Notes: generated by a model from the sequence alone, not told the origin. Shown: positions 872 through 45,766, counted from the first letter of the stretch. The stretch: DNA of 64,000 nucleotides from Escherichia coli (GCF_030013595.1 NZ_CP122768.1), one strand, 5' to 3'. Program-made: numbers and translations.

Positions 872-1056
872 ACGCCACAATTCAAACGATACCAGAACTT
901 CTTATCCAGACACGAGGCAATCAGACCGAAGTGGCGAGGAGGCTTTCCTGTGCAAGAGGAACAGTGCTCAAGTACAACAGAGACAGCAAAGGCGAGCGTC
1001 ACGCAATAGTTAACGGCGTCCTGATGGTCAAACAGGGCAAGAGGGGAAGACGATGA
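868..1056 (+). CDS. ninH: NinH-like small DNA-binding protein
   Basis: 62 aa; motif GNQTEVARRL...RGTV...HAIVNGVLMV recalled from lambda NinH; located just upstream of Q. Confidence 0.75.
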   Translation: MNATIQTIPELLIQTRGNQTEVARRLSCARGTVLKYNRDSKGERHAIVNGVLMVKQGKRGRR

Positions 1057-1676
1057 GACTCGAAAGCGTAGCTAAATTTCATTCTCCAAAAAGCCCGATG
1101 ATGAGCGACTCACCACGGGCTACAGCTTCTGACTCTCTTTCCGGTACTGATGTGATGGCTGCTATGGGGATGGCGCAATCACAAGCCGGATTCGGTATGG
1201 CTGCATTCTGCGGTAAGCATGAACTCAGCCAGAACGACAAACAAAAGGCTATCAACTATCTGATGCAATTTGCACACAAGGTATCGGGGAAATACTGTGG
1301 TGTGGCAAAGCTTGAAGGAAATACTAAGGCAAAGGTACTGCAAGTGCTCGCAACATTCGCTTATGCGGATTATTGCCGTAGTGCCGCGACGCCGGGCGCA
1401 AGATGCAGAGATTGCCACGGTACAGGCCGTGCGGTTGATATAGCCAAAACAGAGCAGTGGGGGAGAGTTGTTGAGAAAGAGTGCGGAAGATGCAAAGGTG
1501 TCGGCTATTCAAGAATGCCAGCAAGCGCCGCATATCGCGCTGTAACGATGCTAATCCCAAACCTTACTCAACCCACCTGGTCACGCACTGTTAAGCCGCT
1601 GTATGACGCTCTGGTGGTGCAATGCCACAAAGAAGAGTCAATCGCAGACAACATTTTGAATGCGGTCACACGTTAG
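1053..1676 (+). CDS. Q: Late gene antiterminator Q (lambda-type)
   Basis: 207 aa; sequence recalled as essentially lambda Q (MRLESVAKFHSPKSPMMSDSP..., zinc-binding CRDCHGTG...CGRCKG); followed by pR'-like promoter. Confidence 0.9.
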   Translation: MRLESVAKFHSPKSPMMSDSPRATASDSLSGTDVMAAMGMAQSQAGFGMAAFCGKHELSQNDKQKAINYLMQFAHKVSGKYCGVAKLEGNTKAKVLQVLATFAYADYCRSAATPGARCRDCHGTGRAVDIAKTEQWGRVVEKECGRCKGVGYSRMPASAAYRAVTMLIPNLTQPTWSRTVKPLYDALVVQCHKEESIADNILNAVTR

Positions 1677-1718: not shown

Positions 1719-1747
1719 TTGACTTTTTGAATAAAGTTGGGTAAATT
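1719..1747 (+). promoter_or_regulatory. Late promoter pR' (-35 TTGACT, 17-nt spacer, -10 TAAATT), with the Q-utilisation region expected to overlap
   Basis: Canonical sigma70 hexamers directly downstream of Q, in the position of lambda pR'. Confidence 0.7.
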
Positions 1748-1753
1748 TGACCC

Positions 1754-1947
1754 AACGATGGGTTAATTCGCTCGTTGTGGTAGTGAGATGAAAAGAGGCG
1801 GCGCTTACTACCGATTCCGCCTAGTTGGTCACTTCGACGTATCGTCTGGAACTCCAACCATAGCAGGCTGAGAGGTCTGCAAAATGCAATCCCGAAACAG
1901 TTCGCAGGTAATAGTTAGAGCCTGCACAACGGTTTCGGGATTTTTTA
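1754..1947 (+). ncRNA. Lambda-type 6S leader RNA (pR' to tR' transcript)
   Basis: About 194 nt from the predicted pR' start to the tR' T-run, matching the known lambda 6S RNA length; start site inferred. Confidence 0.5.
1891..1947 (+). terminator. tR' intrinsic terminator
   Basis: Inverted repeat cccgaaac...gtttcggg followed by a T-run (attttttatt). Confidence 0.65.
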
Positions 1948-1950
1948 TTT

Positions 1951-2025
1951 GGGTCAGTCGTATAAAGGTCATTACGGAAGGCTGTTAACCTTCTTATCGT
2001 GGTTCGAGTCCACGCTGTCCCGCCA
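1951..2025 (+). tRNA. tRNA-like gene, anticodon GUU (Asn), with one acceptor-stem mismatch; possibly degenerate
   Basis: Hand-folded cloverleaf: anticodon stem gaagg/ccttc with loop ctgttaa, T-arm cgtgg-ttcgagt-ccacg, 3' ctgtccc-g-CCA; T:T mismatch at acceptor pair 4:69. Confidence 0.5.
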
Positions 2026-2030
2026 AATAT

Positions 2031-2106
2031 GCTGGTTTAGCTCCAATGGTAGAGCGGTCGCCTTGTAAGCGAATGGGTAGCGGTTCAAGTCCGTTAACCA
2101 GCACCA
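2031..2106 (+). tRNA. tRNA-Thr (anticodon UGU)
   Basis: Hand-folded cloverleaf: acceptor gctggtt/aaccagc, D-stem gctc/gagc, anticodon loop cttgtaa, T-loop ttcaagt, discriminator A plus CCA. Confidence 0.7.
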
Positions 2107-2348
2107 TAACTGAGCCGTAGCCACTGGCTATCCTGAATTCATGAGTGATAGTTACGCTGCGGCCTTCTACACATGATCTTCGTGAAAGCGGGTGACAGGA
2201 GGTCGCGCTAACAACCTCCTGCCGTTTTGCCCGTGCATATCGGTCACGAACAAATCTGATTACTAAACACAGTAGCCTGGATTTGTTCTATCAGTAATCG
2301 ACCTTATTCCTAATTAAATAGAGCAAATCCCCTTATTGGGGGTAAGAC

Positions 2349-2672
2349 ATGAAGATGCCAGAAAAACATGACCTGTTAGCCGCCATTCTCGCGGCAAAGG
2401 AACAAGGCATCGGGGCAATCCTTGCGTTTGCAATGGCGTACCTTCGCGGCAGATATAATGGCGGTGCGTTTACAAAAACAGTAATCGACGCAACGATGTG
2501 CGCCATTATCGCCTGGTTCATTCGTGACCTTCTCGACTTCGCCGGACTAAGTAGCAATCTCGCTTATATAACGAGCGTGTTTATCGGCTACATCGGTACT
2601 GACTCGATTGGTTCGCTTATCAAACGCTTCGCTGCTAAAAAAGCCGGAGTAGAAGATGGTGGAAATCAATAA
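2349..2672 (+). CDS. S: Holin/antiholin S (class I holin)
   Basis: 107 aa; dual-start [10 protein letters not shown]...; sequence recalled as near-identical to lambda S. Confidence 0.9.
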
Positions 2673-3941: not shown

Positions 3942-4484
3942 ATGAATTATCCAACTATCGTTAACGGCATCGATTTCCGAGAACTGATTTTTGTGGCAAA
4001 CAACGATCCGGTTACAGATTCTTTTATGGTGGCAAAAGCATTTGGAAAGCTGCCGAAGAACGTGGTTCGTGACATTGAGCGAACCATAGAAGCTTGCCCT
4101 CCTGAGTTTGATACAAAGCTCAACTTTGAGCTTTGCTATAAAAACAATGAGTTACAGAATGGTAAGCCGCAAAAATTCTACCGTCTACGCAAGGATGGGT
4201 TGATGCTTTTGGTTATGTCCTACACCAAAAAAGAAGCAATGCGTATCAAAATTGCTTACATCAACGCATTTAACTGGATGTACGCCATGCTTCAGGTTGG
4301 TCATCGTCAATTTGAAGAAGAGAGAAATGCCGTAATGCTGGAGTACATGAAAGAGAAGGATGTTGCCAGCATGTCAGGTCGCCTGCTAAATCGCTGGGGC
4401 AAAATTAAGAAGCCACAGTTGCTGGCTAGAATTGAACGCCTTGAACAGCACGGGCAAACCGTAATCCCCGGACTCATCAATTAA
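3942..4484 (+). CDS. rha: Rha-family phage regulatory protein
   Basis: 180 aa; N-terminal region typical of Rha/ORF6N-type phage regulators; position between lysis and terminase genes as in P22-like phages. Confidence 0.65.
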   Translation: MNYPTIVNGIDFRELIFVANNDPVTDSFMVAKAFGKLPKNVVRDIERTIEACPPEFDTKLNFELCYKNNELQNGKPQKFYRLRKDGLMLLVMSYTKKEAMRIKIAYINAFNWMYAMLQVGHRQFEEERNAVMLEYMKEKDVASMSGRLLNRWGKIKKPQLLARIERLEQHGQTVIPGLIN

Positions 4485-4691
4485 CGGCAGTACCGCGAAA
4501 CAACCCAAGCCAGTAAGTGGGGAAATAACTGAAAGATGAACCTCCAGCCTTATGGCAAAAAAGATTCTTTGTGGTGGCGGACTGATGGAAAGACATCGGA
4601 TAGAATAAAACAGTGGCTAGGGTAGCTCCCGAAAAGCGGAATCGTCACCGCCAGCCACTGAATCTATGACGAACAACTAGACGAGGTTGAT

Positions 4692-19637: not shown

Positions 19638-20011
19638 ACCAACCTCCTTAGTTTTGCTCAGGATACCAGATGATACTTTATTGGTGGAGTGGTGTGTGAA
19701 AACGTGTCAACGACAAACCATCCACAACTTGGACGAATGATTTAGCAAAAAGTGCTATTTTTGGTGTTTAGTGTCATAGAAAAGTGAATAGCTCACTTTT
19801 CAACATTGCATGAAACTTGCAGGAAATGTGACATTACCTTATAGGTAATTTCGGCGAAAATGCAGTAAATGTGAAACGTAATGGTTTAAACATGTCGCTA
19901 AAGTGGTTGTAAGTTAGCCTCCGAAGGATTGCTGATAGCTTTGTTATAGTATTAAATGACATTTGACATAGTTGGATACTTAGCTGTGGCTATCAAGATG
20001 GAGGTGTGTTC

Positions 20012-20455
20012 ATGCTTACTTGTTTTGATGTCGCCGACTACTTCCTGTCGCGGTGTGACGAGGATAGCGGTGACACAATCTCTAATTTAAAATTACAAAA
20101 GCTTGTTTACTATGCTCAGGGGTTTTCATTGGCGTTGCTTGGTGAGCCTCTTTTTCAGAATAAGATGGAAGCTTGGATGCATGGCCCTGTTGTCCCTGAG
20201 CTTTATCGCCGTTATAAACAATATGGTAATGGAGCTATCCCTTCTCCAGAGTCTTTTGATGCTGAAAAATTCAGCGAAGAACAGTTAGAGCTATTAGAAG
20301 AAGTCTGGGATGTTTTTGGGCAATTTTCTGCCTGGAAACTGAGGAACATGACACACGAAGAGTCACCATGGAGATCAAACTATATTGAGGGTGTTGGTGG
20401 TTCTGAAATTAGCTCTAAGGAGATGGCAGAGTACTTTGCAACTCGGATTAACTAA
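20012..20455 (+). CDS. DUF4065 / Panacea-domain protein (putative antitoxin, PanA/SocA-like)
   Basis: Motif LKLQKLVYYAQGFSLALLGEPLF...EAWMHGPVVPELYRRYKQYG typical of DUF4065 phage-associated proteins; GGAGG 7 nt upstream of ATG 20012 (the ORF track uses GTG 20006). Confidence 0.65.
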   Translation: MLTCFDVADYFLSRCDEDSGDTISNLKLQKLVYYAQGFSLALLGEPLFQNKMEAWMHGPVVPELYRRYKQYGNGAIPSPESFDAEKFSEEQLELLEEVWDVFGQFSAWKLRNMTHEESPWRSNYIEGVGGSEISSKEMAEYFATRIN

Positions 20456-44116: not shown

Positions 44117-44668
44117 TCACGGTAATTCCGGTGGCAACCACTCATCCACTTCAATCAACACCAGCAATGCCGCATCACCACCGTACTCTTTTGGTGCCTG
44201 GTGAAATGCCATCACATGCGGATGTTGCGCCAGCCACAGCGGCGTTTGCTGCTTCAAAATATGCTTCCCATGACCATGCATCACGCAGGCACAAAACACA
44301 TGTTCGCGGCGACAGGCGGCAATCAATGCACCTAACTCCTGCTTGGCTTGCAGCTGCGTCAAACCGTGCAAATCCAAAAACAGCTCCGGTGAATAATCGC
44401 CACGGCGTAACTTCTTCGCCTCAAAATGGCTTACATCTGGGCGAACATATTTCACCGGACCTTCGGTATTCAACAACGGCTGAAACTCATCGGAAAAATA
44501 ATGGCTGGCATCGGCCTGCTCCTGAATCAACCGCTTTACTGGCACTTCGCTGATTTTCTTACGCTGCGGTCGGTGGACAATCGTGTCCTGCTTAATCTTG
44601 CGAGTCCCCGCCATCAACTGGCGAAACAGCGCCTGGTCCTCCTCGCTAAGTGTTGTTTTCTTTTTCAT
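44117..44668 (-). CDS. smrB: Ribosome rescue endonuclease SmrB
   Basis: 183 aa with C-terminal Smr domain; synteny with prmB. Confidence 0.9.
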
Positions 44669-44833
44669 TTATCTGTCTCTATTTCTAATTTTCCTACAGT
44701 TTACCCGACTCGTAGCGCAATCGATCGTTTTAAACGTATTTTTCCTCACTCACCGCGCGTGAATGCTGATTTATCGTCATCTTCATGGCAAACTAGCCGC
44801 CGAAATTATTGCGATCATGCCCTGGAGGAATAC

Positions 44834-45766
44834 GTGGATAAAATTTTCGTTGATGAAGCAGTAAATGAGCTGCAAACCATTCAGGACATGTTGCGCTGGT
44901 CGGTGAGCCGCTTCAGCGCGGCAAATATCTGGTACGGTCACGGCACCGATAACCCGTGGGATGAAGCCGTACAGCTGGTGTTGCCTTCGCTCTACCTGCC
45001 GCTGGATATCCCGGAAGATATGCGCACCGCGCGTCTGACCTCCAGCGAAAAACACCGTATTGTTGAACGCGTGATCCGCCGCGTCAATGAACGCATTCCG
45101 GTGGCTTACCTGACTAACAAAGCGTGGTTCTGCGGTCATGAATTTTACGTCGATGAACGCGTGCTGGTGCCGCGCTCGCCGATTGGTGAACTGATCAACA
45201 ATAAATTTGCCGGACTTATCAGCAAGCAACCGCAGCACATTCTGGATATGTGTACCGGTAGCGGCTGCATTGCGATTGCCTGTGCTTATGCTTTCCCGGA
45301 AGCGGAAGTCGATGCGGTAGATATCTCTCCCGACGCGCTGGCGGTTGCTGAACAGAACATCGAAGAACACGGTCTGATCCACAACGTCATCCCGATTCGC
45401 TCCGATCTGTTCCGTGATTTGCCGAAAGTACAGTACGACCTGATTGTCACTAACCCGCCGTATGTCGATGCGGAAGATATGTCCGACCTGCCAAATGAGT
45501 ACCGTCACGAGCCGGAACTGGGCCTGGCATCTGGCACCGACGGCCTGAAACTGACGCGTCGCATTCTCGGTAACGCGGCAGATTATCTTGCTGATGATGG
45601 CGTGCTGATTTGTGAAGTCGGCAACAGCATGGTACATCTTATGGAACAATATCCGGATGTTCCGTTCACCTGGCTGGAGTTTGATAACGGCGGCGATGGT
45701 GTGTTTATGCTCACCAAAGAGCAGCTGCTGGCGGCCCGTGAACATTTCGCGATTTATAAAGATTAA
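44834..45766 (+). CDS. prmB: Ribosomal protein uL3 glutamine methyltransferase PrmB
   Basis: 310 aa from GTG start ([13 protein letters not shown]...); NPPY motif; the longer ORF-track start would overlap smrB. Confidence 0.85.

Follow-up and report, generated by a model that had tools for sequence, protein, structure and literature searches.

A phage 21/Sf6-type tRNA-Asn and tRNA-Thr cassette in the late leader of a P22-like Escherichia coli prophage and its proposed role as a source of a nuclease-resistant ACA reader

[quoted passage not shown] The feature is the known phage 21/Sf6-type Asn-Thr late-leader cassette and displays all of the testable features that define it. The cassette is already known: it is annotated automatically and has been described in phage genome papers, and an anti-defence activity of its tRNA-Thr has recently been published. 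As the best explanation of its presence, we propose that this late-operon cassette gives the phage a nuclease-resistant reader of the ACA codon, counter-defence and codon supply being two sides of one function, an interpretation that we hold, with some reserve, to be probable.

The late region of the prophage contains the following features, all on the plus strand and numbered from the first letter of the window:

1053..1676, plus strand: lambda-type antiterminator gene Q, an ORF of 207 aa (PHROG 127, anti-termination protein Q-like, E = 1e-82)
1719..1747, plus strand: late promoter pR', with TTGACT, a 17-nt spacer and TAAATT, within a lambda-like (97%) stretch
1754..1947, plus strand: late leader equivalent to the lambda 6S RNA, including qut; collinear with lambda, its ends approximate and set by homology
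1888..1948, plus strand: terminator tR', a long hairpin (1888-1942) followed by the run TTTTTTAT, which ends at 1948
1949..2107, plus strand: tRNA cassette of 159 bp, which replaces 163 bp of lambda (44782-44944)
1951..2025, plus strand: tRNA-Asn (ARAGORN; Rfam RF00005, 55.3 bits, E = 3e-9)
1984-1986, plus strand: anticodon GUU of tRNA-Asn, in a gene with discriminator G73 and an encoded CCA
2026..2030, plus strand: intergenic spacer AATAT of 5 nt, read directly from the sequence
2031..2106, plus strand: tRNA-Thr (ARAGORN; Rfam RF00005, 61.2 bits, E = 8e-11)
2064-2066, plus strand: anticodon UGU of tRNA-Thr, in a gene with G1-C72, C2-G71, discriminator A73 and an encoded CCA
2108..2348, plus strand: lambda-type lysis-operon leader, 97% identical to lambda, with a G+C-rich hairpin (2196-2221) followed by CCGTTTTG
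2349..2672, plus strand: lambda-type holin/antiholin gene S (PHROG 126, holin/anti-holin, E = 1e-40), the first protein gene downstream

A preliminary description of this DNA had claimed two tRNA-like genes at 1951-2106 with the anticodons GUU and UGU, and both ARAGORN and Rfam confirm them with exact coordinates. The two genes match the Rfam model RF00005 over positions 1-71 of 71 and score 55.3 and 61.2 bits, the gathering score being 29. Together with the host argW, they are the only tRNA genes that ARAGORN calls in the 64-kb window. The sequence and the cmscan alignment place U33, a purine at position 37, G18-G19, the T-loop GTTC and the 3' CCA in both tRNAs. In E. coli, the identity elements are G34, U35, U36 and G73 for the Asn synthetase and G1-C72, C2-G71, G35 and U36 for the Thr synthetase, and the sequences of the respective tRNAs contain all of them. 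The acceptor-stem mismatch noticed earlier in the first tRNA is confirmed as U4·U69, and it is accompanied by U13·U22 in the D stem. A mismatch that the earlier description lacks, G27·A43, lies at the base of the anticodon stem of tRNA-Thr, the anticodon arm of which reads GUCGC/CUUGUAA/GCGAA with G27·A43 unpaired. Minimum free energy folding of tRNA-Thr gave no cloverleaf, but the fold of a single unmodified sequence is uninformative, and a covariance model and covariation counts were therefore used instead.

The two genes lie in a lambda-type setting. In E. coli strain PA45B, Kapi1 and HK446, the Q homologue bears the annotation antitermination protein, and the record of HK446 labels the pR' site 'similar to coliphage lambda PR''. 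The leader from pR' through qut and 6S to tR' corresponds to lambda 44513-44781 at about 97% identity, a match that covers both the promoter hexamers and the hairpin of the terminator; the 6S RNA of lambda is about 194 nt long. The tR' hairpin, nearly identical in sequence to that of lambda, folds as RNA with -26.9 kcal/mol (z = -6.7), and none of 200 shuffled sequences was as good. The segment 1680-2350 matches lambda in two pieces of about 97% identity each, one on either flank, excluding the tRNA block. The borders of the cassette were set by a three-way alignment with lambda and Kapi1 and by exact string matching: it starts 2 nt past the T-run of tR', the left junction reads TTTTTTATTT|GGGTCAG and the right junction CACCA|TAACTGAGCCG, and both are the same in phage 21, Sf6, HK446 and Kapi1. 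The alignment agrees with the earlier claim that the tRNAs directly follow the T-run of a lambda-type tR' and replace lambda sequence. Lambda itself has no tRNA at this place, as ARAGORN called none in the replaced stretch (44782-44944); a tRNA remnant within these 163 bp was considered and rejected, since a permissive Rfam search also returned nothing relevant. The replaced lambda segment is a long hairpin that is found in P1 too.

Downstream of the cassette, S begins 243 nt after tRNA-Thr, in the same position as in Sf6. The hairpin at 2196-2221 is seen in the RNA fold of 2150-2260 but was not called by a simple terminator scan of 1500-2500, so that it can be considered only a putative terminator. 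In the same interval, pR' was the only sigma-70-like site found by a promoter scan, with no internal promoter for the tRNAs. Because the stretch between tR' and S holds no promoter-like site, the Q-dependent late transcription suggested before is the natural reading of the position of the genes downstream of pR' and tR'. As this position suggests, transcription would start at pR' and reach the tRNAs after Q-driven read-through of tR', and the tRNAs would be excised from the late transcript by host tRNA-processing enzymes.

The first 26.7 kb of the window constitute the right half of the P22-like prophage, comprising nin genes, Q, lysis genes, terminase, portal, a P22-type coat gene, ejection proteins, an immI region, tailspike and integrase; a P22-like prophage carries here a lambda-type Q/pR'/tR'/S module. 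The prophage is integrated at argW, the gene of tRNA-Arg(CCU), which is intact at 26665-26739 beside the integrase gene, and the 17-bp att core of Kapi1 is found at 26662. For HK446, the authors of bioRxiv 10.64898/2026.07.10.737580 raised the explanation that the phage tRNAs compensate for a host tRNA gene damaged by integration. For the present prophage this is hardly credible, and we reject it on the ground that the integration site, argW, is intact and is neither a Thr nor an Asn gene. The host gene thrW encodes a Thr isoacceptor different from that of thrU. The cassette is also carried by phages with other attachment sites, for example SfI at thrW (PMC3636060), and the integration of Kapi1 has been described to regenerate argW (Kapi1 literature).

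The cassette has close relatives in many phages. The tRNA-Asn is identical (75/75) to the Asn gene of phage 21, Sf6, HK446, Kapi1, ST64T and JLK-2012, while the tRNA-Thr is 75/76 identical to that of phage 21, HK446, Sf6 and Kapi1, with A26G as the sole difference, and 100% identical to that of SfI; G26 is shared by SfI and at least 25 E. coli genomes. At this hinge position, the experimentally tested tRNA-Thr21 and HK446 tRNA-Thr have A26; the tRNA-Thr21 sequence compared here is that of the phage 21 genome record. The spacer is 5 nt long both here and in phage 21, Sf6 and ST64T, reading AATAT in the former and AACAT in the latter. The Asn-Thr pair is annotated in Sf6, SfI, HK446, Kapi1, mEp506, BTP1 and many P22-like phages of Salmonella; that of Sf6 is annotated as 'similar to phage 21' and begins 2 nt after a 21-type tR'. 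The genome paper of SfI (2013) described tandem Asn(GUU) and Thr(UGU) genes downstream of Q, and one or both tRNAs at the same position in Sf6, ST64T, PS3 and phage 21 (PMC3636060). In the annotation of the NCBI pipeline, the pair is present in 368 of 5426 complete E. coli genomes (about 7%), whereas the alternative of lambda itself, the 163-bp segment at full length, is found in fewer (153 genomes). A paper on a P22 small RNA (PMC13397905) was considered as a source for the cassette and set aside, as its subject is a tRNA-Thr fragment at attP instead, and the paper on the BASEL collection contains nothing on these tRNAs.

A scan of IMG/VR for this type of tRNA-Asn gave at least 120 viral contigs, and Thr(UGU) lies directly downstream of Asn in 104 of the 120 matches listed. 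Among the same 120 listed matches, the upstream terminator is of the 21 type in at least 77, of the lambda and a Klebsiella type in 10 each, and of a third hairpin type in 4, so that the lambda-type Q/tR' preceding the cassette here, in HK446 and in Kapi1 represents a minority (10/120). The cassette adjoins at least three terminator types (lambda, 21 and a third), with the junction TTTTTTATTT in most loci, and its carriers span three tail morphologies: HK446 is a siphovirus, SfI a myovirus, and Sf6, Kapi1 and the present prophage are podoviruses. Given these multiple terminator contexts and all three tail morphologies, the cassette is a mosaic module, which moves together with the boundary at which the late terminator meets the lysis genes.

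The pair studied here is the same element as that of phage 21, Sf6, SfI, HK446, Kapi1 and BTP1, with both junctions in common as well as the location behind the late terminator and ahead of the holin gene. From the phage 21 pair it differs by A26G in tRNA-Thr and by an upstream module of the lambda type instead of the 21 type. The ileZ-argN-argO tRNAs of Stx phages lie between Q and stx, read rare Ile and Arg codons and are usually explained by rare-codon supply. They are likewise tRNA cargo downstream of pR' and tR', but the present pair has other anticodons (GUU and UGU) and other sequences. Thus, the earlier impression that this pair looks different is correct with respect to ileZ-argN-argO only; it is not unusual, being the routinely annotated pair of phage 21, Sf6, SfI and HK446.

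The occurrence of the cassette in about 7% of complete E. coli genomes could also point to a role in the lysogen. A low level of tR' read-through from a constitutive pR' would then supply resistant tRNAs that protect the cell and the prophage against tRNA-targeting toxins or the abortive systems of co-resident elements. In lambda lysogens, pR' is unrepressed, and this possibility is further consistent with the start of the cassette only 2 nt past the T-run and with the G+C-rich hairpin, followed by GTTTTG, 90 nt downstream of tRNA-Thr. On the other hand, the tR' hairpin is strong, the downstream hairpin falls below the terminator criteria of the scan, over the tRNAs the transcriptome paper on Kapi1 reports antisense signal only, and a search of the literature found no expression of the tRNAs in lysogens. 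We consider both the supply of tRNAs in the lysogen and their use against such threats improbable.

Both tRNA genes look functional, with cloverleaves backed by compensatory changes. In the covariation set of tRNA-Asn, 93% of the cells are paired and 10 pairs have changed on both sides, a result reached by none of 500 shuffles and beyond all slid controls; the corresponding values for tRNA-Thr are 94% of the cells paired and 13 pairs changed on both sides (0/500 shuffles; slid controls 23-50% paired). Further compensatory variants occur among the IMG/VR sequences. The phage tRNA-Asn is only 59% identical to asnT of E. coli, and its nearest relatives outside the lambdoid group are the tRNA-Asn of T4-like and jumbo phages (72-77% identity). 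The U4·U69 mismatch is confined to the lambdoid subgroup, nearly all variants of which keep it (one IMG/VR variant has U4·G69), and distant relatives have U·G or C-G at position 4-69. Compensatory changes flank the mismatch, A6-U67/G7-C66 having become G6-C67/A7-U66 in Mulock, and we therefore regard it as tolerated and not as decay. The suspicion that the first tRNA is degenerate is not borne out, since the Asn gene recurs unchanged in phages of E. coli, Shigella and Salmonella, and covariation of its stems is seen in more distant relatives.

Decay has affected tRNA-Thr in other carriers. The Thr copy of the ST64T-type phages is degenerate, the records of phage L labelling it tRNA-Leu, and that of JLK-2012 resembles a chimera, its 3' half being host-like and its anticodon stem having no more than three pairs, indicating that loss is tolerated in some lineages. 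These cases favour a view in which the genes have a non-decoding role, as RNase P/RNase E processing signals that part the leader from the late mRNA, or are simply decaying passengers. Neither would account for the intact anticodon loops, identity elements and CCA ends of the present pair, for the compensatory changes that keep all four stems or for the published rescue, which depends on the UGU anticodon (PMC12445682), and we judge this view very improbable.

The tRNA-Thr can be compared directly with published targets of tRNA-cleaving Toprim nucleases. P2 Old is a Toprim tRNase with tRNA-ThrU, the only UGU-anticodon tRNA of E. coli, as its main target, which it cuts after C28 and after C40 in a paired CNG motif (PMC12445682). 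The tRNA-Thr21 of phage 21 protects cells, resists cleavage in vitro and replaces the cleaved host tRNA, its resistance being credited to C28U/G42A and to 'a shorter anticodon stem'; rescue by phage Thr tRNAs required the UGU anticodon (PMC12445682). Over-expression of the host thrU fails to rescue where the phage tRNA succeeds (PMC12445682; bioRxiv 10.64898/2026.07.10.737580), and HK97, HK542 and Bas34, which are sensitive to Old, regain plating with the Thr(UGU) of HK446 (bioRxiv 10.64898/2026.07.10.737580). These functional data on phage Thr tRNAs were all obtained by over-expression from plasmids and not from the native late-operon position (PMC12445682; bioRxiv 10.64898/2026.07.10.737580). 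Besides, viral Thr(UGU) alone rescued neither lambda nor recB cells from OLD toxicity, and HK446 also encodes a protein inhibitor of OLD, Oad2, the authors doubting that the tRNA is primarily anti-OLD (bioRxiv 10.64898/2026.07.10.737580).

The anticodon stem of the tRNA-Thr in the window is GUCGC/GCGAA, whereas that of the host thrU is ACUGA/UCAGU, and no CNG is present on either strand of the former. With U28-C29-G30 and C40-G41-A42 against C28-U29-G30 and C40-A41-G42 in thrU, it has the C28U/G42A change described for tRNA-Thr21. The differences from thrU are concentrated in this stem (8 of 10 positions, as compared to 19 of 66 elsewhere; p = 0.003). Among 23 Thr variants from IMG/VR, the odd anticodon arm is invariant in all members of the lineage but one, G27·A43 being present in all of them, while the acceptor stem drifts with compensatory pairs. 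The invariance of the arm amid this drift would fit selection on the anticodon arm itself. Compared with the OLD-resistant Thr tRNAs (tRNA-Thr21 and tRNA-Thr6, PMC12445682; HK446), the present one has the same anticodon, the C28U/G42A change and the shortened stem, together with G26. It thus shows every sequence feature of the published OLD-resistant tRNA-Thr(UGU) class and is predicted to be resistant.

[quoted passage not shown] Positions 36-41 of tRNA-Thr read UAAGCG in the window and UAAUCA in the host, and the 40|41 context is UAAGC|G against UAAUC|A for Thr and UAACC|U against UAAUC|C for Asn. In comparison with the PARIS-neutralising set of T5 (PMC12409363), the present pair shares two of the three anticodons, a position 39 that is not U and an altered 40|41 context. 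It differs in being a set of two tRNAs of a temperate phage, at 56-60% identity to the tRNAs of T5 and with no tRNA-Lys. Lacking tRNA-Lys(UUU), the cassette could not alone neutralise the PARIS system that has been studied.

The codon usage of the prophage gives a second line of evidence. ACA occurs at 15.3 per 1000 codons in the prophage ORFs and at 9.1 per 1000 in the flanking host ORFs (1.7-fold; p = 2e-4), and its share of the Thr codons is 28% in the former versus 15.7% in the latter (p = 2e-6). AAC shows a slight increase (p = 0.013), AAU none. The enrichment of ACA is exceeded by that of AGG, AAG, UCA, AGA, CGA and CUA, and codon usage alone therefore does not single out the Asn and Thr tRNAs. 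The earlier suggestion that the tRNAs might match the codon usage of late or moron genes is thus partly borne out for Thr, for which ACA is enriched, but hardly for the Asn codons, and six other codons exceed ACA.

These data bear on a purely supplementary function, in which the cassette would provide more tRNA for late-gene codons and faster synthesis of late proteins, with no link to defence. The ACA share and the slightly raised AAC are in line with it, and the late-operon position suits a need during late translation. However, the six more enriched codons have no carried tRNA, and several Asn tRNA genes exist in E. coli, which counts against a need for another one. In SfI the same ACA bias was found, but no bias in Asn codons (PMC3636060), and the single UGU tRNA gene of E. 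coli (PMC12445682) agrees with a demand for Thr(UGU). Supplementation would leave unexplained both the near-invariant, mismatched anticodon stem of tRNA-Thr while other stems drift and the failure of host thrU over-expression where the phage tRNA succeeds. We thus regard codon supplementation without any defence function as rather unlikely.

We instead favour the explanation in which both aspects are combined. The Asn and Thr genes would be functional phage tRNAs on a compact mobile cassette behind the late-leader terminator of lambdoid and P22-like phages, and tRNA-Thr(UGU) would stand in for tRNA-ThrU, the single ACA reader of the host, when this is cleaved in its anticodon stem by the abortive-infection tRNases P2 Old or PARIS AriB. 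[quoted passage not shown]

For the tRNA-Asn, the same counter-defence role, directed to a secondary target of these nucleases, would be the most likely one; Asn(GUU) is a biologically relevant secondary target of AriB (PMC12409363). The host tRNA-Asn reads UAAUCC at positions 36-41 and the phage one UAACCU, with C39 kept in all variants of the latter, so that U39 and C41 of the host are replaced by C39 and U41; the T5 rescue variants also all lack U39. However, both strands of a common Klebsiella-type Asn variant (GCAGG/CCUGC) contain CNG, and the Asn of P1 keeps UAAU and has A41, so that avoidance of the cleavage motifs by tRNA-Asn is inconsistent. As a general rule for OLD resistance, the absence of CNG from Asn was accordingly rejected: it is true of the variant in the window and broken by the Klebsiella-type variant. 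Neither a link between a temperate-phage tRNA-Asn and escape from nucleases nor an experiment with AriB on these tRNAs was found in the literature consulted.

A second and separate Asn lineage, that of P1 and Cyrano, also has Asn followed by Thr; its Asn is only 55-61% identical to the one in the window. In P1, P7 and D6, Asn(GUU) is likewise directly followed by Thr(UGU), but there the pair precedes tciA and tciB, in a different genomic context. The P1 Asn belongs to the other lineage (55% identity), and the P1 Thr is 78% identical, with a fully paired stem and CNG on both strands.

A more far-reaching proposal is that the Asn-Thr pair is a co-selected two-tRNA counter-defence module, in which Asn, with its conserved C39 and altered 40|41 context, is itself nuclease-resistant and needed for full escape from some natural PARIS/OLD-like systems. 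Both anticodons are within the targets of the OLD-family Toprim tRNases (Lys, Thr and Asn for AriB; chiefly Thr for P2 Old), this Asn is almost always accompanied by Thr(UGU), and the same pairing has arisen or persisted in two unrelated Asn lineages, the phage 21 type and the P1 type. On the other hand, the cassette supplies no tRNA-Lys, CNG is found on both strands of the Klebsiella-type Asn variant, UAAU is retained by the Asn of P1, and lambda was not rescued from Old by viral Thr(UGU) on its own. We therefore advance this proposal tentatively, as possible but on balance doubtful.

Overall, these results tie the published anti-defence activity of the tRNA-Thr to a cassette carried by about 7% of complete E. 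coli genomes, the natural variants of which hardly differ in the resistance determinants U28/A42 and G27·A43 while other stems drift. The usually accompanying tRNA-Asn may represent a concrete candidate for a second nuclease-resistant tRNA.

Comparison of the cassette with other phages suggests that the Thr copies have not been kept equally well. Two of these copies are concerned:

JLK-2012 locus L008, 987-1062: annotated tRNA-Thr gene of phage JLK-2012
ST64T locus L007, 985-1062: Thr copy of phage ST64T

The JLK-2012 gene looks like a chimera, with a phage-type 5' half and a 3' half resembling the host gene thrU; its anticodon-stem pairs are down to three, and ARAGORN gave no call for it. In ST64T/phage L, the Thr copy is degenerate, while the neighbouring Asn gene is 100% conserved. 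JLK-2012 also resembles P1 in that tciA and tciB follow the tRNA genes on their 3' side in both phages.

Phage P1 further shares a structure with the lambda sequence found in place of the cassette:

lambda 44782-44944 (locus L001, 870-1032): lambda segment opposite the cassette, counterpart of window 1949-2107

A long, imperfectly paired hairpin, GCACAACAGGTAAGAGC...GCTCTTTCCGTTGTGC (-40 kcal/mol, z = -2.6), stands at the start of this lambda segment. In P1, the same motif and hairpin are located directly 3' of tRNA-Thr (P1 locus L011, 1579-1668; -51 kcal/mol, z = -5.1), enclosing a T-arm-like GGGTTCGAATCCC, and two further copies of the motif CACAACAGGTAAGGG occur close by (L011, near 1141 and 1797). 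Rfam gave no match for the lambda/P1 hairpin, which may act as a processing site or derive from a tRNA that has decayed.

The codon usage of the ORFs in the prophage (window 1-26560) was compared with that of the flanking host ORFs (26800-64000). AGG was approximately 4-fold and AAG approximately 3-fold richer in the prophage, and UCA, AGA, CGA, and CUA were also much richer, all exceeding the enrichment of ACA, the codon read by the UGU anticodon. None of these six more strongly enriched codons has a corresponding tRNA on the phage.

The prophage ends in the region containing the integrase gene, argW, and the attachment core (window 25349-26739), with host genes beyond. The 17-bp att core of phage Kapi1 is present at window 26662, next to the following genes:

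25349-26539, minus strand: integrase gene, adjoining argW
26665-26739, minus strand: argW, intact tRNA-Arg(CCU) gene, beside the integrase gene

Two other features were detected within the prophage:

4610-4672, plus strand: int-alpA RNA motif (Rfam match, 42 bits versus a gathering score of 35.8)
20006-20455, plus strand: ORF of the immI region (match to PHROG 1281, a family with no assigned function)

While the int-alpA RNA motif is usually found upstream of int or alpA, this copy is flanked within the late region by a Rha-like regulator gene (3942-4484) on one side and, on the other, by small ORFs preceding the terminase genes. The stretch containing the immI-region ORF shares 84% DNA identity with part of a prophage of E. 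coli strain PA45B that includes a gene annotated as 'Panacea domain-containing protein', and the ORF could represent toxin-antitoxin-related prophage cargo.

Regarding transcription around the cassette, a clear antisense signal across both tRNAs has been reported in the Kapi1 lysogen transcriptome, and a similar one in BTP1 in the interval between the tRNAs and the holin gene (PMC12922286). In window 1951-2348, a simple scan of the minus strand detected nothing resembling a promoter. At 2196-2229 on the plus strand, 90 nt 3' of tRNA-Thr, a hairpin rich in G+C (CAGGAGG...CCTCCTG) precedes CCGTTTTG; this hairpin is also present in lambda, and the simple scan did not class it as a terminator. Should it stop polymerase that has not been modified, transcription past tR' would produce a short RNA carrying the leader and the tRNAs without the lysis genes.
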